Below are positions 11,139 through 32,438 of a DNA stretch of 62,052 bases, in pieces. The position numbers and the translations under genes were made by a program. The stretch is from Candidatus Woesearchaeota archaeon (GTDB taxonomy: Archaea; Nanobdellota; Nanobdellia; Pacearchaeales; GW2011-AR1): the NCBI GenBank assembly GCA_964372375.1, contig CAYJQF010000001.1:1-62052 (forward strand). Reading direction: 5' to 3'. Position 1 is the first letter of the stretch. Every line of letters begins with the position of its first letter. The notes beneath the pieces are model-generated. The model was not told the origin of the DNA and searched no databases. It saw only the letters and a program-made list of their open reading frames with translations.

Positions 11139-11170
11139 AGAGTTAAAAACCTCTTTGGCATTTGAAAAGT

Positions 11171-14462: not shown

Positions 14463-14834
14463 TTAAGCATCGGGTATCTGTATATCAACAATATATTTAC
14501 CATCTTCAAGCTGGTAGATTTTTGGTTTTGCTTTTGAAAACAATTTAGGCAGGTCAATGGCATACTTTCCTGGCTTCATGACACGGACACTTTCAAAATC
14601 AAGGAATACCGGAGTCTCCTCGTCTTCAATGCCGGTAAGCTCTCGCACTTCTTCTTCGATCTGGACTTTCTCAGCTTCGCTTAAAGGAACTTCGTGCTGC
14701 ATTTGTTGCAGAATTTCCTTTACCTTCTCTTCTTTCATATAAAAGAAGAACTTGCTGCCGCATCTGCAGCCATCAAGGACTTGCTGGGCCTCATCAGCAT
14801 ACAAAGCGGAGCAATGGACACAACGGTAGGGCAT
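14463..14834 (-). CDS. Zn-ribbon protein of the archaeal GTPase-associated trio
   Basis: MPYRCVHCSALY..CRCGSKFF (CxxC..CxC), followed by an acidic region. It is co-directional with the two genes upstream of it. Confidence 0.6.
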   Translation of the reverse strand: MPYRCVHCSALYADEAQQVLDGCRCGSKFFFYMKEEKVKEILQQMQHEVPLSEAEKVQIEEEVRELTGIEDEETPVFLDFESVRVMKPGKYAIDLPKLFSKAKPKIYQLEDGKYIVDIQIPDA

Positions 14835-14874
14835 GCTTTAAAGAGAGGAGAGGGCTTAATAAACTTTTATTTAC

Positions 14875-15261
14875 TCAACTTAGCAATAATTCAATTTTCT
14901 TAGGATCTCGCTTAATATCTTTAATGACTGCAGCAGGGCCGATTACAGTAATAGCATTGCTGTCTCCGACTAGTCGTTTCGCAATCCTATATTTCATTTT
15001 ACCAAGCAAAGACTCATGCTTCATATCAGGTTCAATAACGGCCAGCTCAATACCTTTAAACTTCTTTACATGATCAACCAGCGCCATGGTATCTTCAATC
15101 AATCTGGCTTCCTCTTCCGCCCGCAACCTTCCATGTAAAATCACAATTTTGTTGCTTAAGATGAGGTTAAGAATTTTTTTTACACGTTCTGAGATGCCGA
15201 GCTCTTTAACTTCGGAAAAAGGGATTACCTGTAGACTCAATCCTTTAATTTTTTTTGTCAT
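14875..15261 (-). CDS. conserved archaeal protein (DUF2073-like, by recall)
   Basis: 128 aa with HGRLRAEEEARLIEDTMALVD..FKGIE. There is a 1-nt gap to the GTPase gene upstream. Confidence 0.5.
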   Translation of the reverse strand: MTKKIKGLSLQVIPFSEVKELGISERVKKILNLILSNKIVILHGRLRAEEEARLIEDTMALVDHVKKFKGIELAVIEPDMKHESLLGKMKYRIAKRLVGDSNAITVIGPAAVIKDIKRDPKKIELLLS

Positions 15262-15262
15262 G

Positions 15263-15901
15263 TTATACTTTTTTTGCGAGTCTAAATAGTGACTCGTAAA
15301 AATCTGCCATATACAGTCCTTCTTTAGCTGAGATTCCTATAACTTCATATTCAGGAAATGCAGTCTCGACTTTCTTCACATCTGCTTTTCTCAGGTCAAT
15401 CTTATTGGCAGCAATAAGCACAGGTATACTCCGTGCTACTAAATTGCCGATAATAGTGATATTTACCTGCGAATATGGATTTTCAGTTGCATCAAGCACA
15501 ATGACCACTGCATCCATATCATCGAGCCACTGGATAGACTCAATAATCCCTTGTGTCGCTTCTTTGGCGCGTTTTTTAGCTTCTCCTTTTTTAACTCCAT
15601 ACTTGAGAAAATCTTCATAGTCAATTTTAGTGGCAATACCTGGTGTATCTACCATCTTGAAAACAAGCGTTTTTCCTTTGTGCTTGATTTCTACTCGTTC
15701 TTTAAACTGCACATGTCTTGTTTCATGGGGAATCCTGCTTACAACACCAATTTCCTCCCCAGTCCAGTCTTTACAGATTCTATTTGCAAGACTTGTCTTT
15801 CCTGCATTTGGCGGTCCATAGAAACCAATCTTAATTGCCTGCTTGCGGCCAAATATTCTGGCGAGCATGCGCCTTGAGAAATTCTTGATTATTTTAAACA
15901 T
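15263..15901 (-). CDS. small GTP-binding protein
   Basis: G1 GPPNAGKTS, G3 DTPG, G4 NKID, G5 SAK. 212 aa. Confidence 0.85.
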   Translation of the reverse strand: MFKIIKNFSRRMLARIFGRKQAIKIGFYGPPNAGKTSLANRICKDWTGEEIGVVSRIPHETRHVQFKERVEIKHKGKTLVFKMVDTPGIATKIDYEDFLKYGVKKGEAKKRAKEATQGIIESIQWLDDMDAVVIVLDATENPYSQVNITIIGNLVARSIPVLIAANKIDLRKADVKKVETAFPEYEVIGISAKEGLYMADFYESLFRLAKKV

Positions 15902-18614: not shown

Positions 18615-21600
18615 CTAGCTGGCACTGCTTCTCCGGGTAGCAAAGAAGTAAAACAAGGCAAGTATTCCTAGTGCTGCTATAAACTGTACTGAGCCAAAGA
18701 ACGGCAGTTCAAATGCAGGTCGCCCACAAGGTATGGGATACTCTCCAGGAGTGCAGCTGAAGCAGGCTAAAGAACCTTCAGGAGATGCATCTACATGAAC
18801 GCGATAATATCCATTCACACATGAACTGATATTGGTAGCATGTTCATAGCAGCTTCCCATACTAACGCCAGCACTCGTCTGGATAGTCGTGTTTAAGACA
18901 CATTGAGCGTCTTTCCAGGCGCAGCTTGCAACAACAATGCCAGCACTACAACTATTTTCCTGGGAACTTTGTTGGTATTGCCATAATCCGTACGCATCAC
19001 GCTCACACTCAGACTTTGTCCCATAGTTTTCACAGCGTATTGGTGCGTTGTCTGGCTTGGGCACACAACCAGAGGTTTCACTGCATACATAGTTTGCTGG
19101 ACAGCACTCATCACTGGTGCCCGCATTCCCATCTCTTCCTTTACAGGCATTGCTGTTATAGTTTTGTATCGAGCTTGAATAATTAGTAGTCCCCTGAATA
19201 GCGACGATACCTCCTTGGTTATTTATTACGGTGAAGTTATAGCCGCGATTGATACATTCTCCAAGAGTAAAGTTGCGGGTAAAGCTTCCCTGCAAGTTCA
19301 TACTTCCTGAAGTATAAGTAGCAACAACCTTGAAGGCTTTATCGAATAAAATGGAAGAATGTTCACTTCTGCTAAAAGTTCTGCTTCCTTGTACTTCGCC
19401 AAGACCAGAGAGAAAAGCAGGAAGTTCAGTTCCCTGATTGAACGTGCTCCAGGTAAAGTTGATAGCTGCAAAGCCAGGACTGGGATTTGCATTACTCACA
19501 CTGACATTATTGGAACAGCCAGGAGGCGCATTTGCCGTTTGTCCAGGACAAGTACCTGCAAGACAGGTAATGGTTCCCGAACAGCTTGCATTGTAACTGC
19601 TGTTAATAATATAAGTATCTTGAGCGCTGAAAGGCACGCTTACTGAGCTGAGGTTAGCAAGAGGAATGCTCTCATCTTGTTTAGGCTTATCAATAAATAC
19701 AGAGAGATCAGCATTCATACTTATAACAAGCAGCGCAATCTGTGCTTCTACTGATACACAACCAGGAATAGTTGCTTGTAAGGTAATCGTTTTCTGCCCA
19801 GAAGTAGCAAGGAGATACGTGAAGGTATCTTCATTTCGTATAATGGCATCTTCAGCAATGCTCCAGCGCACGCTGCTTCCTGAGGGGAGTGCAGTGTGTG
19901 CAAAGATAACGGAGGTATTTGCAAAGTAAATGCCTTTATGGACTGGCGAAGCAATACTCACTTCACAGCCGCTGCCAGCAATAACTCCCGCAGTTTTACT
20001 AGTAGTTAAAATACCAGAGCCAATTGCTTTGCCTGAGACGCTCGCGTTGAAATAAAATTCAAGATACTGATCGCTTGAACCGTAGTCTTCATCAAAGAAT
20101 CCCTGTCCAACGCCCGCAGCAATATCACTGTCAGTAATGGTCCAATTGGCACGCGCAATACCCTGCACATCAACTACTCCAGTCAAGTTTGCATTTCCTG
20201 TTCGTATAGGATCATCAACTGATGCATCTTTCTCCCAAATCTCAAAGGTGACTGCTGTACCTGGAGTAAAATTGGTTTCTGCATACAAAACAACTGAGGA
20301 ATACCTGCTTGCACTGCTTACAGAAAGTGCGGTAGTTCTATCGCGCCAACTTGCTCCATTGAATCCCAGAACTCTAAATCCCTGGGCAAGACAGCACACT
20401 TTTTGAGGGTAAGAATAAGAAGCAACAGCAAGATGCGCATTTGTCTGCGAGGAGAGAGTAAGAATCGCTTGTTCACCAGCGCTACAAGTGCTCTTGAGAG
20501 TGCAAGAAAGAACACCATAACACACCGTTATAGGGTAATGTGATAAAGTAGCATCTTCAGCATGCGCATTGCTTACTGATGAGAGTTTCACAATGCTATT
20601 GCTCCCCGTACACGTCCAAGGATTGTTGCTGCCAGTATAGTTACTTCCAAAAATCTTGTCATAACATATTGAATATTGTGCATTTACATCTTTATTAGTT
20701 ACATTAAAGACTGCCGTATGAGAATTATTTTGGCTGTATAAAGAAAGTATTGTTTGATTCTCTGCTGAGCACATGTTTGTTCCTGATTGTGAAACAGATT
20801 GTGCAATTGTATAATTGATGATGACTAGACCATTAGCTCCTGCAGCTCCACCGGTTGTAGTAGGAACTCCAAACTGACTAGACCTATGCATCCCACCTCC
20901 CCCTCCTCCTCCAGGAGCCTTACCCTGATTAGCAGGTGTTGGTACATTACTTATCGTGCAATCTAGACCATTACCGCCGTCCCCAACTCTTGAACCAACG
21001 AGGAATGTAAGCACTCCATTAGCAAAAATAGCTCCGCCTCCACTTACACCTCCCCCTCCTCCGCTATTCATACTACCATCACCGCCACGAATAGATGTAT
21101 AATTACCTCCAATTCCTCCAATTCCACATCCATCTGGACGTCCCGCACTCCAGAATCCATATCCTCCAATTCCCGCCCATCCTCCAGGGATAGACCTCTG
21201 AACCGCATTACTTGTTCCTCCATTTCCAGCAAAAGCACCACCTATTTGATAGCTTCCTTCTCCCCCTCCCCCACCGCCAGTTGCATTAAGTGCCACACCA
21301 TTTCCTGAAAATGTAGTTGTTCCTCCATTCAATCCTTTCGAGGCACCAACACTTCCTCCATTACCTCCACTACCCACCACGATAGTATAAGTAGTGCCCG
21401 GTAGTACATTTATTGTTTGGAGACCATAGCCTCCTCCCCCACCTCCTCCCCCACCACTAGTAAAGAAATCTCGAATACCTGGTTCCACATAATATTTTGC
21501 AGCACCAGGACCGCCACCTCCTCCCCCACCCCAAAGTTCAACACTAATTGAGTAAACATTAGCAGGAACAGTCCACGTAGATGGATTAAAAGAGCTATCA

Positions 21601-21686
21601 AAAACAACTTGCTCAGCGCGCGCATATCCAAGAAAAAGGATAAAAAAAATTATTGAGAATACTACCAGGAAATGAAATCGCCTCAT
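18615..21686 (-). CDS. giant surface protein with N-terminal glycine-rich domain, Cys-rich repeats and C-terminal TM anchor
   Basis: The start is moved to MRRFHFLVVFSIIFFILFLGYARA (ATG 21686), which lies 26 nt after TTTATAAATA. It carries TVPANVYSISVELWGGGGGGGPG..GGGGGGGGGYG and several further poly-G blocks (about 20830-21560). There are three C..ILxLSSxxNAH repeats (about 20400-20780). The C-terminal anchor is FIAALGILALFYFFATRR. Confidence 0.8.
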   Translation of the reverse strand: MRRFHFLVVFSIIFFILFLGYARAEQVVFDSSFNPSTWTVPANVYSISVELWGGGGGGGPGAAKYYVEPGIRDFFTSGGGGGGGGGYGLQTINVLPGTTYTIVVGSGGNGGSVGASKGLNGGTTTFSGNGVALNATGGGGGGEGSYQIGGAFAGNGGTSNAVQRSIPGGWAGIGGYGFWSAGRPDGCGIGGIGGNYTSIRGGDGSMNSGGGGGVSGGGAIFANGVLTFLVGSRVGDGGNGLDCTISNVPTPANQGKAPGGGGGGGMHRSSQFGVPTTTGGAAGANGLVIINYTIAQSVSQSGTNMCSAENQTILSLYSQNNSHTAVFNVTNKDVNAQYSICYDKIFGSNYTGSNNPWTCTGSNSIVKLSSVSNAHAEDATLSHYPITVCYGVLSCTLKSTCSAGEQAILTLSSQTNAHLAVASYSYPQKVCCLAQGFRVLGFNGASWRDRTTALSVSSASRYSSVVLYAETNFTPGTAVTFEIWEKDASVDDPIRTGNANLTGVVDVQGIARANWTITDSDIAAGVGQGFFDEDYGSSDQYLEFYFNASVSGKAIGSGILTTSKTAGVIAGSGCEVSIASPVHKGIYFANTSVIFAHTALPSGSSVRWSIAEDAIIRNEDTFTYLLATSGQKTITLQATIPGCVSVEAQIALLVISMNADLSVFIDKPKQDESIPLANLSSVSVPFSAQDTYIINSSYNASCSGTITCLAGTCPGQTANAPPGCSNNVSVSNANPSPGFAAINFTWSTFNQGTELPAFLSGLGEVQGSRTFSRSEHSSILFDKAFKVVATYTSGSMNLQGSFTRNFTLGECINRGYNFTVINNQGGIVAIQGTTNYSSSIQNYNSNACKGRDGNAGTSDECCPANYVCSETSGCVPKPDNAPIRCENYGTKSECERDAYGLWQYQQSSQENSCSAGIVVASCAWKDAQCVLNTTIQTSAGVSMGSCYEHATNISSCVNGYYRVHVDASPEGSLACFSCTPGEYPIPCGRPAFELPFFGSVQFIAALGILALFYFFATRRSSAS

Positions 21687-21707
21687 AGCTCCTGAAGCTT
21701 CTTTCTC

Positions 21708-21717
21708 TTTATAAATA
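21708..21717 (-). promoter_or_regulatory. TATA-like box for the glycine-rich protein gene
   Basis: TATTTATAAA on the minus strand is centred 26 nt upstream of ATG 21686. It lies at the upstream edge of the 31-nt spacer before ATG 21686, abutting the stop codon of the preceding pilin-like gene (21718-21720). Confidence 0.5.
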
Positions 21718-22140
21718 TTATCGGGCTTGCGCACGGAACAAGAACACCTTTACCCGCTGAGGATTGATCGTTTCCTGAGCAGGAAGGGCACTAATAAGGC
21801 GCTCACCGGCGCAAATATCAAGGTTATCAAGCCCGCTTTCATTCAAAGCACAGCCAATCTCATCTACAGGGCCGCAAACACTAACCCTCGATGCGATACC
21901 TGGATTGGCAATCCGTGCATCAACAAATATCTTAATCACGGTGGTCTGATGAGAGAGGGCGTTTTCACGCAATGAATTATTCTTTGCAATCTCATCTAAC
22001 AAACCAGGAATGAGCGAGCAGAGACTATTTATAGGCGATTCTGCTTGACGGTATGAAAGTACAACTAATACTGCTCCAATAATGATGAGAATAGACACCA
22101 GCGCTTCAACGATTCTAAGCCATCCTTGTTTATTTACCAT
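21718..22140 (-). CDS. pilin-like protein (class III signal peptide)
   Basis: MVNKQGWLRIVEALVSILIIIGAVLVVLSY has a basic leader, Gly, then a hydrophobic helix with Glu near +6. It overlaps the upstream gene by 7 nt. Confidence 0.55.
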   Translation of the reverse strand: MVNKQGWLRIVEALVSILIIIGAVLVVLSYRQAESPINSLCSLIPGLLDEIAKNNSLRENALSHQTTVIKIFVDARIANPGIASRVSVCGPVDEIGCALNESGLDNLDICAGERLISALPAQETINPQRVKVFLFRAQAR

Positions 22141-22874
22141 ATTTTTACCTCTACATCGCCAAAGACAAACCGCCCATCTGTTCTAAGAATTTCAACTCGT
22201 TTTGTCTTTGCATACACGGTGGTTTTGAGAAGCAGAGGCTTTTCCATGAGTATCCTGTCTCCTTCTGAGAAACTGACAGCGATACCGAGCTCATAGCCGG
22301 CGCCAAGACCAAGGGCTGCTTTTGTCTGTTCGTACTCTTTCGTATAGGTAGTATTCAGAGCAAGCAGCCGCTGCTCTGAAAGTAACGTTATGTTTGTCTT
22401 TGAGGCAAGAGCATACAAGTGCTCTTGAACCTGCCCCTTTGAATGTACGGTCCCATATGCAGTACGTAAGTCAGGACTGACTCTCACAAATACCAGTTTC
22501 TCATTTCCTTGGCGCTCAAAGTAGATGATATCGTGCTCCAGGGACGAAGGTAATATCGCTCCCGTATAGTTGACTACTTGGACACCAACGCCTGCAAAGG
22601 TTCGAGAAAGATTAACTGCAAGAAAGGTAGTGCTCTCTGGTGCGCTTAGGGCAAGGCTATACTGCTCTACTCCAACACTGGTATTTCTACTAAGTTGTTC
22701 TAGTAGGTATGGAGTGAAGCTTGGGTCCTCAGAAGTATGTTTTGTAGTAAAAAAGTATAAAGCGAAAAGCACTGCCCCTATGAAGAGGACGGAAGCAAGG
22801 ATTATTTCTACATGACTCATTCCTCTTTGGTACATACACATGCCACTCTCGAATCTTTTATATACTTTCTGCAT
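22134..22874 (-). CDS. pilin-like protein (class III signal peptide, Glu+5)
   Basis: ..MYQRG/MSHVEIILASVLFIGAVLFALYFF has Glu at +5 after the putative cleavage Gly. The true start may be the internal ATG at 22841 or 22835. Confidence 0.55.
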   Translation of the reverse strand: MQKVYKRFESGMCMYQRGMSHVEIILASVLFIGAVLFALYFFTTKHTSEDPSFTPYLLEQLSRNTSVGVEQYSLALSAPESTTFLAVNLSRTFAGVGVQVVNYTGAILPSSLEHDIIYFERQGNEKLVFVRVSPDLRTAYGTVHSKGQVQEHLYALASKTNITLLSEQRLLALNTTYTKEYEQTKAALGLGAGYELGIAVSFSEGDRILMEKPLLLKTTVYAKTKRVEILRTDGRFVFGDVEVKIW

Positions 22875-22912
22875 GCAAACAGCTTTTTATAATCGTCTTT
22901 GTTCAATACTAA

Positions 22913-23689
22913 GTGACGCTCTTACAGGAATTGACTACGTTGCTGAAGCAGAAGCGAGAACTTCAGGATATTGCAGAGAGCGTAGTGCAAACAACACTTG
23001 AAGAGCAGTTACGAAAAAACAAGCTCTCGACAACAGCGAATCTAACTGCCAAGGAGAAAAAAATACTGGTAAAGGAAGCGCGCGCAGTACTGAGACAGTC
23101 AGCTGGCCAGTATCATGCTCCCTTATCAAAAGCAGCAACTGTACCGGAATTGCTCAAAAGCCACACCTCTACAAGGGAGAGACAGGCACTATATCCCTTG
23201 CTTAAGCGGAAAATACACGAGCTTAAGGTTACTTCTGTTCTTGACCTTGGCTGTGGGTTGAATCCTCTTGCATTAGCGGAGCCCTCTGTGAGATATTATG
23301 CAGCAGATATTCGCCAGGATGATCTTGCACGAGTGGATGCTTTCTTCAAGAAACACAATATCAAAGGCAAAGCATTTGTGTATGATGCTAAAAGGATAGA
23401 TACTTCATTGCCACCTGTTGATCTTTGTCTTTTGATGCAACTAGTCGACGTTCTGGAAAAGCGAGGACACAAACTTGCAGAAAAGATTCTCACTACGGTA
23501 TCTGCCCGTTATTTTTGTATTAGTTTTGCAACAAAAACGATTTCAGGGAGACCTATGAATCATCCGCAGCGAGGGTGGATTGAGCGCCTCTTACTCCGTC
23601 TCGGGTATCCCTTTGAATGCATAAAGACCAAAAAGGAGATTTTCTACTTTGCTGAGAAGCCTAAAGTAATTTCACCCCAGTCGCGATGA
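22913..23689 (+). CDS. Arm/Rmt (FmrO)-family 16S rRNA methyltransferase homolog
   Basis: 258 aa with SHTSTRERQ, VLDLGCGLNPLAL (SAM motif I), QLVDVLEKR and ISFATKTISGR. By eye these align with the conserved blocks of RmtB/ArmA-type m7G1405 methyltransferases. The GTG start lies about 24 nt after TTTTTATAA. Confidence 0.65.
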   Translation: MTLLQELTTLLKQKRELQDIAESVVQTTLEEQLRKNKLSTTANLTAKEKKILVKEARAVLRQSAGQYHAPLSKAATVPELLKSHTSTRERQALYPLLKRKIHELKVTSVLDLGCGLNPLALAEPSVRYYAADIRQDDLARVDAFFKKHNIKGKAFVYDAKRIDTSLPPVDLCLLMQLVDVLEKRGHKLAEKILTTVSARYFCISFATKTISGRPMNHPQRGWIERLLLRLGYPFECIKTKKEIFYFAEKPKVISPQSR

Positions 23690-24518
23690 GATATGCCGAT
23701 ACCACAAGGAAGAATGAATGTTTAATGCCTGCTTTAAGTGATCCTTCAGTGAGTTTTCCAATTGCAAAACCAGTAAAGAATCCCTGTGCCATGAGCAGAT
23801 ATAAAAAAAGATTAGTAAGCTCATCTACTGTAAAAACAGGGGTATTTGTGCTTACTGCTTCAAGGGCTGATGCGCTTGCTCCAACTCCTTTAAAGGAAGT
23901 AATCTGGACCGCAAGCGGCAGAATTTTAAACTCCATAACAAGCATAATGCCAATAAAAATAAAGAAGATAATGTATCCCTGTACAACTAAATTCGATATT
24001 GCTGCTTTGCGTTCTTTCTTCAGCTTTTCAACTTCGGAAATAGACTTGGCAACTGAATCAAGAATGTAGTCAATCTCTCCACCTGCTCGCTCAGCTTCGC
24101 TAATAAGTCCTACCGCTCGGGTGATTACTGGATTGTCAACATCTCGGGCAAAGTTCTGAAGCGCCTGATTTACTGGAATTCCCAGAGCTATTTGATTCGC
24201 TAACTTACTAACTGAGGGGCTCAGCGGTCCATAATTCTTCTTGCTAATGTTTACTATACTCTTGCTAATGGGTGTCCCGGTAATAACGCTTTCTGCGAGA
24301 TTCCTAGAAAATTCAAGAAACAGAGCATTAATTTCTTCTTCACGCTTGCTTTCACTCACAAGGCTTACGATAAAAGGCAATGCGATAACAACTATTCCTA
24401 TGCCTGCTATAAAGTAGAAAAGGTTCTTCTGCTCCTGTACAAAAAAGAAGATACTTCCAATTACTATAAGAACAATACCAGCAACAATGCCTATCCAATG
24501 TGTCTTTTTAAGTTTCAT
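23661..24518 (-). CDS. type IV pilus platform protein, single T2SSF domain (FlaJ/TadC-like)
   Basis: 285 aa. N-terminal TMs, then a T2SSF-like cytoplasmic domain (LFLEFSRNLAESVITGTPISKSI..GIPVNQALQNFARDV), then C-terminal TMs. Confidence 0.8.
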   Translation of the reverse strand: MKLKKTHWIGIVAGIVLIVIGSIFFFVQEQKNLFYFIAGIGIVVIALPFIVSLVSESKREEEINALFLEFSRNLAESVITGTPISKSIVNISKKNYGPLSPSVSKLANQIALGIPVNQALQNFARDVDNPVITRAVGLISEAERAGGEIDYILDSVAKSISEVEKLKKERKAAISNLVVQGYIIFFIFIGIMLVMEFKILPLAVQITSFKGVGASASALEAVSTNTPVFTVDELTNLFLYLLMAQGFFTGFAIGKLTEGSLKAGIKHSFFLVVSAYLIATGVKLL

Positions 24519-25795
24519 TAGTATGAAGGTTGTTTTATATGGAGAATAGTAAGAAAGATAAGATTGATAATGGCAATGAGCGCAATAATAGCCGCAGTCA
24601 TGCTCGCAGGAGTGATACCTACATTAAAGTCGCCAATAGAAAGCAGGATAAAGAGTAAGAGGAGGATCATGGGCGCAGCAATTACTACCGTAATATAAAT
24701 ATCCATAAAGGTCTCTGCAATCTTAGTGAATTGCTCTCGCTCCAACCGGTAGCTGACGAGTAACGTCTCAGCACGCTTTTCAAAGAAACTTTGAAGGCTG
24801 CCTCCTGAAGTGATAGTTGTTGAGAGGCCAAGAAAGAGCTCAGCCAGCTTCGGGCTTGATGAATTCTGTGCCGCATTGTTGAGTGCAGTTACTAAGTCAT
24901 AACCATAGAGATTAATTTGGTTGAGAAGCTTTCTGATCTCTTTTCGTAAAAACGGATATTCAGTGCTTAAAACAATAATTTTAAAGATATTTGTCGGCTC
25001 AAGGCCCGCTCCAGAAATTGCATTCATATGAATAACTGCAAAAGGTAATTCACGATCAATTCTCTTTGCAAGCGATCCAATTTCTGTTGAAGGGTAGGCA
25101 TATAAAATAAGATAAGAAGCAAGCGCAAAAAAAGGAGGAATCCAAATGCTCCAGGCAATTTTTAGTAGAATACTTCCTTGGATCAAGAAGAAAACACCTA
25201 AGGCAAGTATAGTTCCTGCAATCAAACCGATAAACGAAGTGAAAAACATGAGTGAAATATAGCTTTCAGGCAGGATAGAAAGGTTTGCTTTTCGTAAGTC
25301 AGTGCGCAATTTAGCAAAATGTCCTGCTTGTAACAGGCGCTGTGCAGGCGAAAAGAAGAAACGATTTGAGAGTTTGACATATCCACGCGAGTGCTGAAAC
25401 GAGTCTTCCATTTCTTTTATTTTTCCATAGTGTTGTTTCTTGATAGCAGCGAGCGCTTTCTCACTAATCTGGAGCTCATGTAGGAACTTTTCTTTGTCTT
25501 TTGCATGCACAGTAACACTCATACTCTCCCCTGATGGCTTGGAAAAGGAGAAGCGTTCAAGTGAAGTGCGTCGTTCTTGCTGTTTTCCCGGAAGCCGCTG
25601 TGAGATGCTTATTCCAGCGACCAGCGCAGGAACAGAAGCATTTAAGAGTTTCATCTGCGCTTGTAGGGCAAGCAGCGCCTCACGAAGCATCTTCTCTTCG
25701 GTAGGTGTTGCTAAAGCAAGGCGCTGGCTATAGCTTGCAATTTCACGCAACATGCTAACTTCACTGTCTACGTTTTTAGTTAGCTCTTGTATCAT
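24518..25795 (-). CDS. type IV pilus platform protein, single T2SSF domain (FlaJ/TadB-like)
   Basis: 425 aa with a T2SSF-like region ELPFAVIHMNAISGAGLEPTNIFKII..GYDLVTALNNAA flanked by TMs. Its stop shares 1 nt with the next start. Confidence 0.8.
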   Translation of the reverse strand: MIQELTKNVDSEVSMLREIASYSQRLALATPTEEKMLREALLALQAQMKLLNASVPALVAGISISQRLPGKQQERRTSLERFSFSKPSGESMSVTVHAKDKEKFLHELQISEKALAAIKKQHYGKIKEMEDSFQHSRGYVKLSNRFFFSPAQRLLQAGHFAKLRTDLRKANLSILPESYISLMFFTSFIGLIAGTILALGVFFLIQGSILLKIAWSIWIPPFFALASYLILYAYPSTEIGSLAKRIDRELPFAVIHMNAISGAGLEPTNIFKIIVLSTEYPFLRKEIRKLLNQINLYGYDLVTALNNAAQNSSSPKLAELFLGLSTTITSGGSLQSFFEKRAETLLVSYRLEREQFTKIAETFMDIYITVVIAAPMILLLLFILLSIGDFNVGITPASMTAAIIALIAIINLIFLTILHIKQPSY

Positions 25796-25953
25796 ACTAG
25801 CTCGTTGATTTGCATGTGCAAATGCAGAATTTCCTTTTTAGCGAGGGCAACTTGTTCACTATCTTTATGTTTAACTGCCGTATCTAGTTTCTGTACCACT
25901 TCTTTCATGGTAGCAAGAAGATGGGCAAGTGCAGTTACCGCCTCTTTGTCCAT
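25792..25953 (-). CDS. 53-aa helical miniprotein coupled to the platform gene
   Basis: MDKEAVTALAHLLATMKEVVQKLDTAVKHKDSEQVALAKKEILHLHMQINELV, verified codon by codon. Its TGA overlaps the ATG of the 425-aa gene (ATGA). It is below the ORF-track cutoff. Confidence 0.45.
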   Translation of the reverse strand: MDKEAVTALAHLLATMKEVVQKLDTAVKHKDSEQVALAKKEILHLHMQINELV

Positions 25954-25989
25954 AGCGGGAAAAACAGAGCCTTGTTTAAATATCTTTCA

Positions 25990-27513
25990 TTACTCGCTAA
26001 TATCGAATCTATTCAGTACCGCGATAGGATTCTTATGGTATTCATTAATAATATTGCCCACTTCGTGGAAACCGAAAATGCCTCGCTTGAACAGTTCATA
26101 CAGGAGTTTAGAGCGAGTGGCGAACTCTTTTTGGAGTTGTTCAAGCGAGAGACCTTGTCGCGTTGCTATTTTTTCGAAGACTTTACTCTGTTTCTTAAAG
26201 TAAAAGTTGTCGGTTGAAGGATTCCAGATTAAAGGCGTATTAATTAAAGCAGTGCCATCTTTGTTTACATTTATAATTTCTACAACTTCACGGACGCGCC
26301 TTGTCTCATGCTGTTGAATAGTGGCATGGGTCGCAATAACAACACAGTCTAATGAATTGACAAGACTTGGCGAGAGCTCAATGGGCGGTGTCTGCAGTCT
26401 TCGGATGAGCGTATCAACCGAGTCTGCATGCATCGTGCTGAGAGAAGGGTGTCCAGAAGCCATTCCCTGGAAAAGCACAAATGCCTCTTTGCCTCGTACT
26501 TCTCCCACAATCAAATAGTCAGGCATTTGTCTGAACGAGCTTTTAAGAAGGGCGAATAAATCGACTTCACCAACTTTTCCGATTCCAATAGACGGGCGGG
26601 CTACTGCCGGGAGCCAGTTTTCTCTAGGCAGGTTAATTTCTCTGGTATCTTCAATGCTCACCACTCTCGCTTCAGGAGGGATAAAAAAAGCAAGCGCATT
26701 TAAGAGAGTGGTTTTGCCTGAGCCCGTTCCTCCCGAGATAAGGATATTTGACTTATACTGAATCAGGATCCAAAAGTAAGCAAGCATTTCTGGGCTGAGG
26801 GTATTAAAGGCGATAAGCTGTGTCGGAGTCCAAGGAGTCTTAGTAAATTTACGTATGGTGAACGTGGGTCCATTTGAGGTTACATCTTTAGTATAAGAAG
26901 CATTGACTCTGCTCCCGTCAGGCAGGCTTCCATCAAGCAAGGGCTGCGCATAAGAGATATAGCGGCCAGTGCGCTGTGCGAGTTTCTCAACAAAGCTTGC
27001 GAGCACATCAATATCTTTGAACAGTAAGTTAGTCCTCATATTTCTGTACGTGCGATGGATGATATACAAGGGAGTCTCTATACCATTACACTCAATATCT
27101 TCGATGAAATAGTCGCGCATAAGCGGATCAATGGAGCTTAAACCGATAAAATCGCGAAAGAGATAGTAAAAAAGTTTATTGTAGGTCTCATCAGAAAGGG
27201 CCATATTCAGCTCTTCAATAAGCAGCCGCGCTGTTTTATCGATGTAGGTTGTCGTAGCTTCTAATGTTCTGTCAACGGCCACATTAACATTAATGAGTTC
27301 GAACATTGCCTGTTCAAGTCTCTCTAAAACAACGCGCTCATCATCGCTTAGCATAGGCTCCTCTATGTCATATACTAACTCATTTGCTTGTGTATCCCAA
27401 TAAATATGAGCAGAAGCATACGGGGGAATGAGCATATAGCGCACATCAACTTTTGTTTTATCGTCAATCTTAGGGAGCACCGGTATAGTGGGATTGAGAT
27501 TAAGTGCTTGCAT
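25990..27513 (-). CDS. FlaI/PilB-type (type II/IV secretion family) assembly ATPase
   Basis: 507 aa. Archaeal FlaI-like N-terminus (YMLIPPYASAHIYWD..LVYDIEEP), Walker A SGGTGSGKTTLLNAL, Asp/His boxes. TATA TTTTATATA lies 23 nt upstream. Confidence 0.9.
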   Translation of the reverse strand: MQALNLNPTIPVLPKIDDKTKVDVRYMLIPPYASAHIYWDTQANELVYDIEEPMLSDDERVVLERLEQAMFELINVNVAVDRTLEATTTYIDKTARLLIEELNMALSDETYNKLFYYLFRDFIGLSSIDPLMRDYFIEDIECNGIETPLYIIHRTYRNMRTNLLFKDIDVLASFVEKLAQRTGRYISYAQPLLDGSLPDGSRVNASYTKDVTSNGPTFTIRKFTKTPWTPTQLIAFNTLSPEMLAYFWILIQYKSNILISGGTGSGKTTLLNALAFFIPPEARVVSIEDTREINLPRENWLPAVARPSIGIGKVGEVDLFALLKSSFRQMPDYLIVGEVRGKEAFVLFQGMASGHPSLSTMHADSVDTLIRRLQTPPIELSPSLVNSLDCVVIATHATIQQHETRRVREVVEIINVNKDGTALINTPLIWNPSTDNFYFKKQSKVFEKIATRQGLSLEQLQKEFATRSKLLYELFKRGIFGFHEVGNIINEYHKNPIAVLNRFDISE

Positions 27514-27559
27514 AGGGTAAAAACTCCTCTGAGCTATATAAAACTATCTCGAATTCTAT

Positions 27560-28096
27560 TTAAGAACCAATTCGTATATCTATTACTGGAAGATTTCCAT
27601 TTGCACCTTGATTGCTTACAAAGAAGTGATAGGGAGTAGGCGTCTGAGAGAGTTTCTGTACCGTATCCTTACCCATAGAGGTAATGTTCGCATAGTCTTT
27701 GTATGAAATACTTAAAGCAACTCCCGGTCCGGTGGTATCAGTAAATGAGAGTATCTCAACTCTCCCGTCTGTAACAGGATAGCCGGGCTCCGAGTAGTTC
27801 TCTTGTAAACCGGTGATTTTAAATCGTATTCTATCTTCTGTTCCATTAATGTATAGTTCACCGCGCTTAAAGGCGAGGTCATATGAACGGATATTATCAG
27901 GTCCTAGTTCGACTACTGAAGTGATTGTCTGATCGAGCACTTTAAGTGCACTAATACTCTGCTGAATTAATGCCTGTTCCTGCGCATTGGTAATCTTAGG
28001 GAGGGCATATCCTAAAACTAAGCCGATCAGTGCTAATCCCATTAAAGTATACAGTACTGTTTCTATCCATATTTGTGCTGTTTTATTTAAGTACAT
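27560..28096 (-). CDS. pilin-like protein (class III signal peptide, Glu+5)
   Basis: MYLNKTA/QIWIETVLYTLMGLALIGLVLGY. Confidence 0.6.
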   Translation of the reverse strand: MYLNKTAQIWIETVLYTLMGLALIGLVLGYALPKITNAQEQALIQQSISALKVLDQTITSVVELGPDNIRSYDLAFKRGELYINGTEDRIRFKITGLQENYSEPGYPVTDGRVEILSFTDTTGPGVALSISYKDYANITSMGKDTVQKLSQTPTPYHFFVSNQGANGNLPVIDIRIGS

Positions 28097-28599
28097 AGTG
28101 AGAGGGTATGTGTATCTGTGCGTTGGTCGCAGATTCTTTCAGCTGGTCCCGAAGCAATGATTGTGTATACATCAACGCTTGAATACAGTTCGGGAGAAGT
28201 ATAGGTATACGTGCGTGTTTCTCCTGGTTCAGGAAGGTGAACAACAGGTTGGGAGCTGTTGAACGGAGCTAGTTTTCCGGAGCTGGTATTTTCATGTACT
28301 GCAAAAGTAGTCGAATTTCCCGAGCTTTTAAAGACCAGCTGAAATCCTTTTACCTTCCCTGCACCCTCATTGTTATTTGTTTGTATTGATAAAATATAGA
28401 GCCCTGAAGGAGTGCGGCAGTTATAGGAGAAACGATCATCAAAGCTAAAATGCGTTTGGTACGGGGTACATTCAGTGCTTCTTTGCAAACTAGTCTTTAC
28501 AAAAGGTATAAGTATCTGTGCAACGATACTTGCAGCAACCAAGGTAAGTAAAATGAGCGCAATTGTCGCAACGGCGGTAGAGACCCCTTTTTTGTTCAT
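28087..28599 (-). CDS. archaeal type IV pilin (pilin N-terminal motif)
   Basis: MNKKG/VSTAVATIALILLTLVAASIVAQIL. Confidence 0.7.
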   Translation of the reverse strand: MNKKGVSTAVATIALILLTLVAASIVAQILIPFVKTSLQRSTECTPYQTHFSFDDRFSYNCRTPSGLYILSIQTNNNEGAGKVKGFQLVFKSSGNSTTFAVHENTSSGKLAPFNSSQPVVHLPEPGETRTYTYTSPELYSSVDVYTIIASGPAERICDQRTDTHTLSLCT

Positions 28600-28601
28600 G
28601 A

Positions 28602-29057
28602 TTACATTTCAACCGTGATTGTTTTGCTCATTCCATCACAAAAATACTGTTTACTCTCGCTTCCAATGCTTCCTAAAATAATAGGCGTAACAATGATCTC
28701 TTCACTAGTCTGTATACTAGTGCCAATAAGAGAGATGCTTCCTGTTTCACCATTTCGGATCGTAGAGCCTTCAGAACCGCCAACAGTTTCAACTTTTTCG
28801 ATAGTGCCTGAACTTTTCTTTTTAATCTCGAAGCTGTAGAGAGGTACATTGCCGCGGTTGACAATGTGTACTTCAGCACCGTATGCTTCCGCTTCGAACT
28901 GAATACTTCCACACGAATTTTCAGCAGGTTCACCTTCTTTTTGTGCTTTTTCTATGAGAAAACTTCGTGCCCAAAGAAAGATGATAGATGCAAGGATAAG
29001 CGCCAAAACAATGAGGAGAACGGTTGCAATTACTGGTGAGAGGCCCTTTCGCTCCAT
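28602..29057 (-). CDS. archaeal type IV pilin (pilin N-terminal motif)
   Basis: The start is moved to MERKG/LSPVIATVLLIVLALILASIIF (ATG 29057), 26 nt after the TATA. The ORF-track start at 29159 would overlap the VKOR gene. Confidence 0.75.
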   Translation of the reverse strand: MERKGLSPVIATVLLIVLALILASIIFLWARSFLIEKAQKEGEPAENSCGSIQFEAEAYGAEVHIVNRGNVPLYSFEIKKKSSGTIEKVETVGGSEGSTIRNGETGSISLIGTSIQTSEEIIVTPIILGSIGSESKQYFCDGMSKTITVEM

Positions 29058-29098: not shown

Positions 29099-29485
29099 TC
29101 AGATCATCTTCCAGGAAAAAAAGAACAGAAGGAGGTTTATGATGTAGATGCAAGTGCATATGATGCAGAAATTGCGTAGACGGACATACGAAATATATCC
29201 AAGATAGAAAGAGAATAACACACCAAGCGAGCTGAGGAGAAATACTGCGCGATATGCCTCTGTTTGTATCAGATAGATAAGAACAAGATAAGCCACAATA
29301 CCAATAAGAGGATTTGGAAATCCAAAGAGACGGCCATACGGGCTTAAGAAGGCCTTACTACATGAAACGAGTTCTGAAATATCACAAAGCGGCGTATATT
29401 CTTTATTTTTTAACCGCAGCTCAACAATCAATGCATATAAAGAGAGAAATACCCCTAAAATTGTCAGCAGCAAGAGTATACTCAT
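29099..29485 (-). CDS. vitamin K epoxide reductase (VKOR) family membrane oxidoreductase
   Basis: 128 aa, 4 TM. The loop Cys pair is CDISELVSC and the CxxC (CIIC) sits in the last TM. Confidence 0.75.
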   Translation of the reverse strand: MSILLLLTILGVFLSLYALIVELRLKNKEYTPLCDISELVSCSKAFLSPYGRLFGFPNPLIGIVAYLVLIYLIQTEAYRAVFLLSSLGVLFSFYLGYISYVRLRNFCIICTCIYIINLLLFFFSWKMI

Positions 29486-29486
29486 G

Positions 29487-30455
29487 TTAGGTAGGTACGA
29501 TCTTTTGTTTGGTTAGGTATTCATACGCTGAGTACGCGGCAGTACATCCTTCTGCAACGCCCGTTATTGCCTGCTTGAATGGCTTGTCAGCTACATCACC
29601 TGAAGCAAATACTCCTGGAACATTAGTTTCCGAGGTCTTATGATTTAGTACAATTTCTTTCTTTTCGTTTACTTGCACTCCTAGACCTTGAGCAACTTCT
29701 GAGAGCACCAGATGTCCGATAGCAACAAAAACACCTTGTACAACAAGCTCCTTGTTTCCCTGGTATGCTCGATCAAGCAGTACACTGGTAACTACCTGAT
29801 TGCCTTTGACTGCAATGACATTTGTCTTGTTAATAACTTCAATCTTTTTTTGCGCTTGTACTCGTTTCAGATTAATAGGCTCAGGATGAATCTGCTCTCC
29901 CCTATAAATAAAATATACTTTCTTTGCATGTTCTGCCAGTACAAGCGCGTCTTTTGCCGCAGAGTCAGAACCTCCTACAATGCAAACAACTTTATTCTTG
30001 AAGAGAGGAGCATCGCAAAGTGCACAGTAAGCTACTCCTTTGTTCTCAAACTCTTTTGAACCAGGAACATCTAAAGTCTTCCATTTGGTTCCTGTTGCAA
30101 ACAATATCGTCTTTGCAAGATACCTGCTGTTATGCGTATCAACTTCAAACAGGGTTTCTTTTTTTCGCACATGTTCAACTTTCTCTTCTTTAATAGTAAC
30201 TAAATCGTACGATTCTGCATGCGTGCGTATTGCTTCCGCAAGTTCGGTGCCGGTCACCCTGATAAATCCAGGATAGTTTTCAACCACATTTGTTGTGGTA
30301 ATAACACCGCCAATAGGCAACTCGGCGCTTGACATGACTCCTAAACAAAGCGTCTTCATTCCCAATCGAGCACCATACATAGCAGCAGCCAAACCGCTCA
30401 CCCCTGCGCCTATGATGAGAAAGTCATATGCATTTTTATTTGATTCTTTAGGCAT
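29487..30455 (-). CDS. trxB: thioredoxin reductase-like flavoprotein
   Basis: FAD motif IIGAGVSGLAAA. The redox CxxC is YCALCDAPLF (canonical CATC/CAVC). NADPH motif IVGGSDSA and C-terminal GDV. Confidence 0.88.
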   Translation of the reverse strand: MPKESNKNAYDFLIIGAGVSGLAAAMYGARLGMKTLCLGVMSSAELPIGGVITTTNVVENYPGFIRVTGTELAEAIRTHAESYDLVTIKEEKVEHVRKKETLFEVDTHNSRYLAKTILFATGTKWKTLDVPGSKEFENKGVAYCALCDAPLFKNKVVCIVGGSDSAAKDALVLAEHAKKVYFIYRGEQIHPEPINLKRVQAQKKIEVINKTNVIAVKGNQVVTSVLLDRAYQGNKELVVQGVFVAIGHLVLSEVAQGLGVQVNEKKEIVLNHKTSETNVPGVFASGDVADKPFKQAITGVAEGCTAAYSAYEYLTKQKIVPT

Positions 30456-30528: not shown

Positions 30529-31005
30529 ATGGACTCGGCGCTTGAGAGATATCTTAAAAAAAAGGGAATTGCATACGCTTTATACAATCACCTCCCCGTC
30601 TTTACAGTCGCGCAGGCGTCAAAGCTTAAAACCGTTATCCCAGGCATGCGTACCAAAAGTCTTTTCTTAAAGGATGACCAGGAAAGGCTGTATCTTGTTT
30701 GCATGCGTGGAGAGAAGCGCTTGGACATGAAAGCTTTAGCGAGCTATTTAAGCGTTAAACACTTAGAATTTGCCTCTTCAGAGGAATTGAAAAAAGAATT
30801 ACACGTCACTCCAGGCTCTGTTTCTCTTTTCTGTATGATTCACGCGAAACAAACAAAGCTTATTCTAGATAAAGAAGTGTGGGATGCTGCAGAAGCAGGC
30901 TTTCATCCAAACATAAACACTGCAACCCTCGTTGTTCCACACGAATCTCTTGCTCGTTTGTACACTTCTCTACAATGTAAAAAGGAGATCAAGGACCTTG
31001 CGTAA
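30529..31005 (+). CDS. YbaK/ProX-type aminoacyl-tRNA trans-editing deacylase
   Basis: 158 aa with TKSLFLKD..LYLVCMRGEKRLDMKALA..PGSVSLF, the YbaK/EbsC family pattern. Confidence 0.8.
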   Translation: MDSALERYLKKKGIAYALYNHLPVFTVAQASKLKTVIPGMRTKSLFLKDDQERLYLVCMRGEKRLDMKALASYLSVKHLEFASSEELKKELHVTPGSVSLFCMIHAKQTKLILDKEVWDAAEAGFHPNINTATLVVPHESLARLYTSLQCKKEIKDLA

Positions 31006-31735
31006 AAAAATCGCTTTTATTTTTGCCCTGCTTATGACGGGACTCATTGCAAATACAGTATATCTCTTCTCTCAGAGTCAGGAACAAACAAAGCAAGAGA
31101 TTCTAGTAGCGAGAGTAATAGACGGCGATACCCTCGTGGACGCTGAAGGAAGGATTATTCGTCTTGCTAATATCAATGCCCCCGAGAAGGGGACTCCAGC
31201 AGCAGCATACGCAAAAGAGTTTCTCAGTGCATATACTAATAAAACCATAGGCTTGGAAATTCTAGGCACTGAGAAGTATGGCAGATTGCTTGGTAAACTC
31301 TATGCTGAAAGGTATATCAATCTTGAGATTGTTGAGAAAGGATTTGCTTCAAAATTCTTAGTTGCTGATGCGGAAAAGAAAGTTTTTGCAGACGCTGAAG
31401 AAGAAGCAATCTCCACTGAGCAGGGCATATGGAAGCAATCCTCTCACGCTTCTTGCCTTGCACTCCTTGTTGATTCCAAGAAAGAGCAGGCAGTACTCAC
31501 CAATACGTGTGAGGCAATTAACCTTACTGGTTGGATACTGAAAGATGAGAGTAGAAAACAATATAAGTTTCATACACTTCTCAAACATGAGCTCACCATA
31601 GAGAGCACATCAGGAAATGATAATGAAACGCAGGTCTTCTGGAATGCAGGAAATGTCTGGAATGATGATAGAGATACAGCCTATCTCTTTGATGCCGACA
31701 ACAGGCTTGCAGCGCACTATAGGTATGGTTATTAA
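30998..31735 (+). CDS. membrane-anchored thermonuclease (SNase) fused to a lamin-tail domain
   Basis: A TTG start at 30998 follows AAAGGAG. It has an N-terminal TM and an SNase pattern, ARVIDGDTLVD..IRLANINAPEKG..EKYGRLLGKLY..EIVEKGFA. The C-terminal LTD-like segment reads INLTGWILKDESRKQYKF. Confidence 0.8.
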   Translation: MRKKIAFIFALLMTGLIANTVYLFSQSQEQTKQEILVARVIDGDTLVDAEGRIIRLANINAPEKGTPAAAYAKEFLSAYTNKTIGLEILGTEKYGRLLGKLYAERYINLEIVEKGFASKFLVADAEKKVFADAEEEAISTEQGIWKQSSHASCLALLVDSKKEQAVLTNTCEAINLTGWILKDESRKQYKFHTLLKHELTIESTSGNDNETQVFWNAGNVWNDDRDTAYLFDADNRLAAHYRYGY

Positions 31736-32438
31736 TCTGCTTGCTTGTATTTTCTTGCTTATCCCCCTTACCCACGCTTTCGAGATTACCGAAGTTGAGC
31801 TCAATCCATTAGGAAATGATGCCGGTGCAGAATGGATAGAGCTGTATGCCAATCAGGAAACAGCACTCAATGATCTTACCTTTGAGAATGGAGATAATGA
31901 AACATACCAAGTGAACGGAAGTTTTAACGGATATCATGTCCTTCAGTTTGCAAAGCAATGGCTTGATAATACGAACGAGACAATCAAAGTTAAACGAGGG
32001 TCTTTACTTTTGACCAGTGTAGGTCCATTTAAAGATGACAAGAACTCCTTGCTTTCGTGGAGTATTTGTAATGATGTCTGGAAATTCAGTGCTGCAACAA
32101 AAGGGGCAGCAAACACCTGTGAACCGCCTACTCAGCAAACTTCTTCAATATCAGAAAACAACAATAAAACGCCGGTACTTGCAAGTAAACAAGAGAACAA
32201 GAAAAGCGGAGCAAACAAAAGCAGGGACGAACGTATAAATTCATCAGAGCATGCTCTCTCTGCTGGAAAAGAAGAAAACTCACAGGAAAACACAGTTATT
32301 AGGCTTACCAATCATGCAACGCAGACACCAATCACATTCACTTCAAAAGAAGGGAACATACGGCTTTGGATTTCTTACACTTTTACTTTTCTTTGTATCG
32401 GTATTATCTTTTTCCTTCTGAGTACACGGAATCTTTAA
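31725..32438 (+). CDS. lamin-tail-domain surface protein with C-terminal TM
   Basis: The start is moved to MVINLLACIFLLIPLTHA (signal peptide). LTD pattern ITEVELNPLGNDAGAEWIELYAN, then a polar low-complexity linker and TM WISYTFTFLCIGIIFFLL. It overlaps the nuclease gene by 11 nt. Confidence 0.65.
   Translation: MVINLLACIFLLIPLTHAFEITEVELNPLGNDAGAEWIELYANQETALNDLTFENGDNETYQVNGSFNGYHVLQFAKQWLDNTNETIKVKRGSLLLTSVGPFKDDKNSLLSWSICNDVWKFSAATKGAANTCEPPTQQTSSISENNNKTPVLASKQENKKSGANKSRDERINSSEHALSAGKEENSQENTVIRLTNHATQTPITFTSKEGNIRLWISYTFTFLCIGIIFFLLSTRNL

Follow-up and report, generated by a model that had tools for sequence, protein, structure and literature searches.

The locus at positions 21718-29057 of a 62-kb stretch of DNA from a Candidatus Woesearchaeota archaeon (the window, to the whole of which all coordinates refer) very probably encodes the core assembly module of a type IV filament, of the adhesion pilus type, of the DPANN lineages Pacearchaeota and Woesearchaeota. 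The module is a standard, vertically inherited gene set and belongs to a catalogued kind; it is not a new machine. All of its genes lie on the minus strand and follow each other in the transcriptional order prepilin A, prepilin B, prepilin C, assembly ATPase, an open reading frame (ORF) of 53 residues, the N-terminal half and the C-terminal half of a membrane platform protein (N-half, C-half), and the prepilin-like genes D and E. A first reading of the letters (the original prediction) had described this stretch as an Epd/Tad-like pilus locus with a split platform, two pilin classes and no peptidase, which runs into two giant surface-protein genes; every element that it described was found again in its place on the minus strand.

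The assignment rests in the first place on the recurrence of the whole gene set. Homologues of the ATPase with 74-83% identity number in the thousands, and their source names are Pacearchaeota or 'Nanoarchaeota' archaeon. A profile built from seven ATPase sequences was used to scan one genome per GTDB species; only relatives from Pacearchaeota and Woesearchaeota were returned, which added 80 loci whose ATPases are 50-77% identical to that of the window. Hidden Markov models (HMMs) of the module genes, constructed from the five closest loci, were then searched against all ORFs of the related loci. The arrangement [A(-A)-B-C]-ATPase-53aa-N half-C half-D-E recurs in about 85 loci of the two lineages; upstream of the ATPase, C was found in 63 of 71 loci, 46 of 64 contain both D and E, and many relatives possess two to three copies of A. 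In comparison with close relatives, identity amounts to 76-81% for the ATPase, 59-64% for the C-half, 46-54% for the N-half, 28-56% for the pilins, and 30-38% for the large proteins encoded next to E. That the pilins are far less conserved than the motor is to be expected of exposed subunits.

The assembly ATPase (25990-27513, 507 residues) is a member of the FlaI/GspE2 (VirB11-like) family with the Walker A motif GGTGSGKTT, and a Pfam T2SSE match of 111 bits bears out the predicted single FlaI-type ATPase. The solved structure that comes closest is GspE of A. fulgidus (PDB 2OAP; 372 bits); the two proteins are 39% identical from end to end, N- and C-terminal domains included. FlaI of S. acidocaldarius scored 273 bits in the PDB sequence search, and CpaF of Caulobacter, with 165 bits and a BLOSUM distance of 0.67, is the most distant comparator. 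A PilB3_C match is weak (17.5 bits, below the cut-off of 27). We computed a neighbour-joining tree of the core region, rooted with CpaF, in which PDB-derived fragments of A. fulgidus GspE, FlaI and CpaF served as the only labelled references. In this tree the window ATPase, the DPANN representatives and A. fulgidus GspE exclude FlaI in 175 of 200 bootstraps; a grouping with the archaellum ATPase ArlI was thus not found.

A reduced archaellum, i.e. a motility locus, would account for several of the family matches: FlaI is the best NCBIfam model of the ATPase (385 bits), JGI labels the homologues 'FlaI', the platform halves match ArlJ/FlaJ models, and prepilin A matches the N-terminal domain shared by archaellins and pilins. 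We nevertheless give this reading hardly any credence. The scores fall far short of the equivalog cut-offs (385 versus 550 bits for the ATPase, 74 versus 550 bits for the platform; the ArlJ models score the two halves with at most 74 bits, their cut-offs being 400-570), and the ATPase sides with GspE, away from FlaI. The locus and flanking proteins that were scanned gave no match to an archaellum accessory family (ArlF/G/H/X or ArlCDE), and a KaiC/FlaH-like Walker A motif is absent from the window. Around the ATPase, the approximately 85 related loci show only the pilin module, as far as our module HMMs, and not archaellum families, were searched. By its genes, the locus is a type IV pilus-like assembly system and not an archaellum.

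Many of the representative proteins nearest to the ATPase in sequence (P0121-P0264) are 1000-2100 residues long and align in two to four separate stretches, a pattern that would be expected of one to three inteins; the window ATPase is intein-free. Between the ATPase and platform genes lies the 53-residue ORF (25792-25953), whose product is predicted to be soluble and probably helical. Its stop codon overlaps the start of the N-half gene (ATGA), and its product matches no Pfam or NCBIfam family. The gene keeps its position and size in the close relatives L001-L004 and was found in 45 of the 66 loci that have both an ATPase and a platform N-half.

The predicted platform of two separate single-T2SSF-domain proteins was confirmed. 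The N-half (24518-25795, 425 residues) consists of a cytoplasmic N-terminal extension of about 170 residues and one T2SSF domain (Pfam, 50 bits); the C-half (23661-24518, 285 residues) contains one T2SSF domain as well (59.5 bits), and the two genes overlap by one nucleotide (TAATG). In the 555-position ArlJ/FlaJ model of NCBIfam, the N-half covers positions 8-248 and the C-half positions 264-536, so that together they correspond to one ordinary platform protein. Moreover, the halves are paralogous (25% identity over 207 residues, E 6e-6). PDB sequence searches with both proteins gave nothing useful. Among 70 related loci with enough downstream sequence, the halves are encoded separately in 62, strictly colinear with the ATPase in 49, and fused in none. 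Distant relatives of the ATPase are likewise accompanied by single-T2SSF genes: two are seen in Nanopusillus, and a contig of a euryarchaeotal metagenome-assembled genome (MAG) ends after the first. The division of the platform into two genes goes back to the ancestor of the entire clade. In L021 and L065 the block of platform, D and E genes is inverted relative to the ATPase, and in L031, L044, L057, L063 and L069 the platform genes do not lie within 10 kb of it; the ATPase-pilin half and the platform-minor-pilin half of the module are therefore separable.

As a mark of Epd or Tad systems, which the original prediction had made of it, the split platform did not hold up, for it is not diagnostic. 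Many systems of clade 2 have two tadC genes (Makarova et al. 2016, PMC4858521), and two platform genes have been reported for System 1, for System 4A including DPANN members, and for System 4B (Sivabalasarma & Albers, bioRxiv 2026); the latter study describes System 2 platforms as single genes. In a search against plasmids, the best match of the C-half was the first T2SSF gene directly after cpaF in a tad locus of Rhodococcus (E 2e-6), which we take from the gene order to be tadB; tblastn with the N-half gave no plasmid match. In the alignment of Denise et al. (2019, PMC6668835), TadB corresponds to the C-terminal half of the archaeal platform proteins. On this mapping, the gene order of ATPase, N-half and C-half follows that of the domains in an unsplit FlaJ and appears to be the reverse of tadA-tadB-tadC.

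Class III signal sequences were called by a motif rule of our own; the archaeal criteria are Gly, Ala or Ser at position -1 and a charged residue at -2 (Pohlschroder & Esquivel 2015, PMC4371748). Prepilin A (28602-29057) comprises 151 residues if counted from Met35 of a longer ORF; this internal start was preferred, since a reading from the earlier start would overlap with the VKOR gene upstream. Its N-terminus, MERKG/LSPVIATVLL, matches the archaellin/type IV pilin N-terminal domain TIGR02537 with 32.2 bits (cut-off 20), the UpsA model with E 1.2e-7, and Pfam Pilin_N with 22.7 bits. The consensus of the orthologues is K[KR]G/[VLI]SP.IAT, and all 83 have Gly or Ala at -1. Prepilin B (28087-28599, 170 residues, MNKKG/VSTAVATI) is an N-terminal paralogue of A, with 50% identity in the first 26 residues; its 56 orthologues share the consensus K[KR]G/[LVI]S. 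The signals of A and B resemble those of PibD/FlaK substrates such as UpsB (KG/IS).

The remaining three families have a different N-terminus. Prepilin C (27560-28096, 178 residues, NKTA/QIWIETVLY) possesses Gln at +1 and Glu at +5. Its 65 orthologues conform to [KR][RK][GA]/Q[VI]W[VI]ET, with Gln+1 in 60, Trp+3 in 65, Glu+5 in 56, and Tyr+9 in 64. The prepilin-like product D (22134-22835, 233 residues from MYQRG; QRG/MSHVEIIL) has Glu at +5 and is 28-32% identical in close relatives; two variants exist among its 48 orthologues, namely G/xSH[VI]E, where about 24 have Glu or Asp, and G/SH[VI]G without an acidic residue. E (21718-22140, 140 residues, NKQG/WLRIVEA), whose gene overlaps the 3' end of D by 7 nucleotides, has Glu at +6; the consensus of 51 orthologues is K[KR]G/[WYF].[RK]..EA, with Glu+6 in 51/51 and Ala+7 in 49/51. 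C, D and E are candidate minor pilins.

The two styles of N-terminus noticed in the original prediction are thus real and conserved across orthologues, and the five families conform to the class III criteria. The exceptions are C (KTA/Q) and E (KQG/W) of the window itself, where -2 is not Lys or Arg and the charge is found at -3; their orthologues are canonical at -2. As each family has 48-83 orthologues in the same place, with conservation of Lys/Arg at -3/-2, of Gly/Ala at -1 and of family-specific residues between +1 and +10, the five represent more than chance. The description of the second style as bacterial-like, with Glu at +5 or +6, needs some refinement. The acidic residue is there, but in D only in about half of the orthologues, and C bears the signature of archaeal EppA substrates: in M. 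maripaludis these have a conserved Gln at +1 and Glu at +5, and EpdB and EpdC read KG/QV (PMC4371748). For C the match is exact; in A and B, [VLI]S is found and Glu is absent, and D and E have Glu without Gln at +1. The signature of C gives some pilin-level support to an affinity with Epd, whereas the resemblance of the G/xxxxE pattern to Tad minor pilins is positional only.

Neither Pfam nor NCBIfam contains a curated family that matches C, D or E. Pilin_N was reached by 16 of 142 members of the B, D and E families, which were scanned as one pool, TadE and N_methyl of Pfam by none of the 142. For C, a model computed with AlphaFold2 from a 78-sequence alignment had a mean predicted local distance difference test (pLDDT) value of 93.1 and consists of a helix (residues 5-64) and a beta-sandwich; the single-sequence model was poor past the helix (pLDDT 44). 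The predicted architecture of C is that of a type IV pilin. C, D and E constitute three unannotated pilin-like families, which, as well as the combination of PibD-type and EppA-type signals in one locus, are a new if modest result.

Five pilin-like genes had been predicted, and five are present at the locus, but the window as a whole holds seven. The motif scan detected two more on the plus strand, at 4230-4766 (MNKRA/QFFLIAAL) and at 4750-5289 (KKA/VSEMVSYAVL). No Pfam matches were obtained for the pair; the product of the second gene contains four Cys residues and matches UpsA weakly (E 9e-4). The two genes may encode pilins supplied in trans to the same machine. They lie just upstream of the Mre11/Rad50 genes.

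A gene for a VKOR-family membrane protein (29099-29485, minus strand) abuts prepilin A and follows a thioredoxin reductase gene (29487-30455, minus strand). The presence of two, four and four Cys residues in A, B and E beside VKOR suggests disulfide-stabilised pilins; according to BLAST, VKOR does not occupy this position in L001-L004.

In agreement with the original prediction, no prepilin peptidase was detected in the window; as a statement about the organism, however, this absence is probably a window artefact, as relatives encode a FlaK-like A24 peptidase elsewhere. An HMM of DPANN A24 peptidases found nothing in the window (best E 0.78). Three of the window's ORFs have at least four predicted membrane helices, namely VKOR, SecY and a presenilin/signal peptide peptidase-type protein at 11162-12091 (plus strand, 309 residues, nine transmembrane segments). 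The latter was considered as an EppA-like peptidase and rejected as the prepilin peptidase, as it is a presenilin/SPP (A22) homologue and not an A24 enzyme; a role for it is improbable. It scores 42.7 bits with Pfam SPP and 57 bits with NCBIfam PSH, and carries the motifs YD, GGGD and PAM; a PDB sequence search with it gave nothing useful. It is the only intramembrane aspartyl protease of the window and belongs to the GxGD superfamily, which includes the prepilin peptidases.

An A24 gene within 10 kb of the ATPase is absent from 85 of 86 related loci, and ten multi-transmembrane ORFs near related ATPases showed no A24 match. A search for the GGGD motif among multi-transmembrane ORFs in 1.25 Mb of related loci led to the exception, L082 (Woesearchaeota, ATPase 53% identical), where about 9 kb separate the ATPase from an A24 gene on its downstream side (10797-11633 of L082, minus strand). 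The DPANN A24 profile matched no other related locus. The L082 peptidase contains the motifs VPDW...GGGDSK and Arc_PepC-type C-terminal matches. Its full-length form (P0359, 307 residues, 'A24 family peptidase') has 658 homologues, annotated as A24, prepilin peptidase or CpaA, which stem, where the source is named, from Woesearchaeota, 'Nanoarchaeota' and unclassified archaeal MAGs. P0359 scores 58.6 bits with the FlaK model and 27 bits with the EppA model. The A24 peptidases of the lineage comprise about 285-310 residues, which is nearer to the EppA model (334) than to the FlaK model (230), with about seven predicted transmembrane segments, an Arc_PepC_II-type C-terminal domain, and the motifs TD.KT.EVPDW and GQWGGGDSK. 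PibD/FlaK genes are commonly unlinked in archaea. In this lineage, too, the peptidase is probably unlinked as a rule, and its absence from 62 kb says little about the genome.

The module was compared with the known systems component by component. The ATPase may point to clade 2 or System 2, which includes PilB3-PilC3/PilA of H. volcanii and to which, as we infer from the published classification, A. fulgidus GspE belongs; the signature minor pilin of clade 2 is arCOG02911. A prepilin of the PilA/UpsA type whose signal reads KG/[VLI]S is shared as well, as are, in the clade 2 model of Makarova, extra pilin-like genes and S-layer- or adhesin-like neighbours. In contrast to clade 2, the DPANN module has unannotated C, D, E and 53-residue families of its own, and one EppA-type pilin. 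With Ups and Aap of Sulfolobus it shares PibD-type KG/IS signals, and A and the pilin at 4750-5289 match UpsA; however, these systems have a single two-domain platform (UpsF, AapF) and other accessory genes, and the scores obtained here are far below the equivalog cut-offs.

The name Epd/Tad-like, chosen in the original prediction, is justified with respect to the two-gene platform and the signature of pilin C, but it does not suit the GspE-like ATPase or the lack of a short pilin, EppA, MinD and TadZ. We consider it possible, though unlikely, that the locus truly belongs to the Epd-like lineage (Makarova's clade 1, System 1), the archaeal sister of Tad, and operates with a dedicated EppA-type peptidase. 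Denise et al. (2019, PMC6668835) name two single-T2SSF genes as a trait of Epd-like and Tad systems, DPANN archaea are among the reported carriers of System 1 (Sivabalasarma & Albers, bioRxiv 2026), and several minor pilins, among them one with Gln+1 and Glu+5, are found in the Epd locus of M. maripaludis as well. The match of the C-half in the Rhodococcus tad locus and the length of the lineage's A24 peptidases also fit this possibility.

However, clade 1 has been described as a rapidly evolving outlier that is found only in class I methanogens and Thermococci and whose hallmarks are major pilins of about 70 residues, EppA, a MinD-type ATPase and DUF2341 adhesins (PMC4858521). None of these hallmarks could be found here. 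The motif scan of window ORFs of at least 40 residues yielded no pilin of about 70 residues, the kind that lacks a globular domain, and the pilin-like genes all encode 140-233 residues; EppA, a large dedicated peptidase whose gene usually belongs to the Epd locus, is missing from the window and from the 86 loci. No MinD/TadZ/FlaH-type ATPase exists in the window, where Walker A motifs in long ORFs are limited to Rad50, the pilus ATPase, a GTPase and two non-ATPase ORFs. The large surface proteins hit Gly_rich_2 and PKD instead of DUF2341. Furthermore, Gln+1 is restricted to one of the five pilins, the peptidase of the relatives scores higher with FlaK than with EppA, CpaF is the most distant ATPase, and the order of ATPase, N-half and C-half is opposite to the deduced Tad order.

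Bacterial Tad/Flp systems likewise combine one ATPase, two single-T2SSF genes and minor pilin-like genes with an acidic residue about five positions after the cleavage Gly; the DPANN locus differs from them in its distant ATPase, the apparently reversed order of the platform halves, and the lack of a Flp pilin, TadZ, a secretin and a TadE Pfam match. The Tad-like clusters of Nanohaloarchaeota and Undinarchaeota (PMC9563170) resemble the module in the VirB11-family ATPase, separate TadB- and TadC-like genes and poorly annotated pilins. Unlike the module of Pacearchaeota and Woesearchaeota, they include a TadV peptidase and, in some cases, KaiC; the module, in turn, has five recognisable prepilin genes. 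Note that archaeal type IV filaments, split platforms and their occurrence in DPANN have already been catalogued (PMC4858521; PMC9563170; Sivabalasarma & Albers, bioRxiv 2026) and that public annotations already name the ATPase, platform and peptidase families rightly. New, and modest, is the clade-wide description of the module together with its 53-residue accessory.

Two large genes follow E on the minus strand. The first (18615-21734) encodes 1039 residues with a glycine-rich domain (Pfam Gly_rich_2, 62 bits) and a C-terminal hydrophobic anchor; the second (15907-18576) encodes 889 residues with a PKD domain (43.6 bits) and a hydrophobic segment near the C-terminus, which precedes a tail of about 100 residues. 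The N-termini of both, as read from the translations, are of the Sec type and not of class III. The two proteins that had been called giant thus comprise 1039 and 889 residues. D, E and the 1039-residue gene are tightly packed on the same strand, as predicted. The locus is interrupted by a convergent plus-strand gene that lies between the C-half and D (22913-23689). It codes for an FmrO/Rmt-family ribosomal RNA (rRNA) methyltransferase (Pfam FmrO 53 bits, above the cut-off; NCBIfam generic Rmt model 97 bits, below 250) and is not a pilus component. L001-L004 share the gene order including this opposite-strand gene, which is present in 11 of 64 related loci, the closest ones, and is a lineage-specific insertion. 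FmrO/Rmt enzymes are of the 16S rRNA m7G1405, aminoglycoside-resistance-like type, and in each of these 11 relatives the gene is wedged into exactly this place.

That the large proteins are tip or associated adhesins, so that the locus would encode a pilus-plus-adhesin apparatus for host contact, is quite doubtful in our view, and the original prediction is weakened in this point. The packing of the genes would agree with it, as would the large secreted PKD, Gly-rich, discoidin or LamG proteins that follow E in the closest relatives, and S-layer- or adhesin-like genes are part of many archaeal pilus loci (Makarova et al. 2016, PMC4858521; Sivabalasarma & Albers, bioRxiv 2026). In addition, an enrichment of Pacearchaeota in size fractions of host-attached cells and pili-like appendages on ultrasmall cells have been observed (He et al. 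2021, PMC7906910). However, an ORF of at least 500 residues follows E in only 9 of 36 related loci, which are close relatives. Orthologues of the 889-residue protein (31-37% identical) occur in L001, L003 and L004, and the protein is absent from most distant relatives; in other loci, E is followed by archease/RtcB or by GTPase-OapB-OapC, as judged from ORFs of which only the N-termini were read. As large genes occur after E only in close relatives, they represent an insertion into a syntenic core region of one sublineage. Besides, proteins without class III signals cannot be incorporated as pilins, and in a compact genome long co-directional runs include housekeeping genes. The two products are presumably cell-surface proteins, adhesin- or S-layer-like, whose membership in the pilus is doubtful. 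The genes for GTPase and the origin-associated proteins OapB and OapC (14463-15901, minus strand) stand directly after the large surface genes, and this cluster adjoins E in distant relatives; a replication origin may be located close to the pilus module.

A short pseudopilus for the uptake of DNA or nutrients or for protein secretion, comparable to Com, type II secretion or bindosome systems, is a further interpretation, which we regard as distinctly improbable. It could be based on the homologues of C, several of which are annotated 'pseudopilin PulG' by JGI, on faint N-terminal matches of C to GspG and ComGE, and on the hypothesis of pilus-mediated DNA import in DPANN (PMC9563170). A few genes upstream, at 30932-31735 on the plus strand, there is also a gene for a membrane-anchored protein with a staphylococcal nuclease and a lamin-tail domain. 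It is conserved in L001-L004, and its product could be relevant to DNA scavenging; the neighbouring ORF 31617-32438 had no Pfam match. Yet the GspG and ComGE matches (E about 0.04-0.05) are not significant and concern the N-terminal helix only. The window contains no ComEC-type channel and no secretin, substrate-binding proteins with class III signals do not occur in the locus, and the linkage to the nuclease could be a coincidence within the syntenic core region.

If the locus is, as we prefer, the assembly module of an adhesion-type filament, the following mechanism can be proposed. Membrane insertion, cleavage and motor function are deduced by homology to characterised type IV filaments, while subunit roles and function are guesses. 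The five prepilins would be inserted into the membrane with the N-terminus inside, and their basic leaders would be cut after Gly or Ala by an unlinked FlaK/PibD-like A24 peptidase. The hexameric ATPase of the FlaI/GspE2 family would dock on a heterodimeric platform, extract the pilins and polymerise them via their hydrophobic N-terminal helices. A, possibly together with B, would make up the bulk of the filament, because it is first in the operon, is of the PilA/UpsA type and is often duplicated. C, D and E would be minor pilins of low abundance, probably forming an initiation or tip complex, because they are single-copy, positionally conserved and acidic at +5/+6. The 53-residue protein may act as a cytoplasmic accessory that is translationally coupled to the platform, and the function of the filament would be adhesion or host contact.

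Several observations weigh against this interpretation or parts of it. The locus is known from its genes alone, from which we infer the function in adhesion or host contact, the major and minor roles, the heterodimeric platform and the possession of an own peptidase. The sequence would suit DNA uptake or secretion as well as adhesion, and the choice of the major pilin is a guess. D and E are called pilin-like by their N-termini and have no family match. A Foldseek search of the PDB with the model of C found no resembling structure, the best hit (E 0.04, TM-score below 0.2) being generic immunoglobulin-like noise. Finally, 7 of 70 related loci have no platform genes within 10 kb of the ATPase.

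The same data may be read in a more far-reaching way. The conserved FlaI/GspE2-like ATPase, the colinear split platform, and the coexistence of PibD/FlaK-type signals in A and B with EppA-type or acidic ones in C, D and E may indicate a distinct, ancient lineage of type IV filaments, which bridges clade 2 PilA-type systems and Epd/Tad and uses a single large FlaK-like A24 peptidase of dual specificity. We rate this as improbable. If true, the module would give a picture of the archaeal system from which Tad pili descend, and it would provide three new minor-pilin families plus a new 53-residue motor accessory for host contact in widespread episymbionts.

With the standard module as the preferred interpretation, the current picture of archaeal type IV filaments is unchanged, and the consequences are practical ones. 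C, D, E and the 53-residue gene can be given labels in place of 'hypothetical'; it should not be taken for granted that the large surface proteins encoded next to them are components of the pilus; and the missing peptidase is probably a matter of linkage and not a biological absence. Few DPANN archaea of groundwater and sediment are as abundant as Pacearchaeota and Woesearchaeota, which are thought to be host-attached. As the module is among the most conserved non-housekeeping loci of its neighbourhood, with ATPase identities of 50-81% in about 85 species-level genomes, work on how these cells attach could sensibly begin with it.

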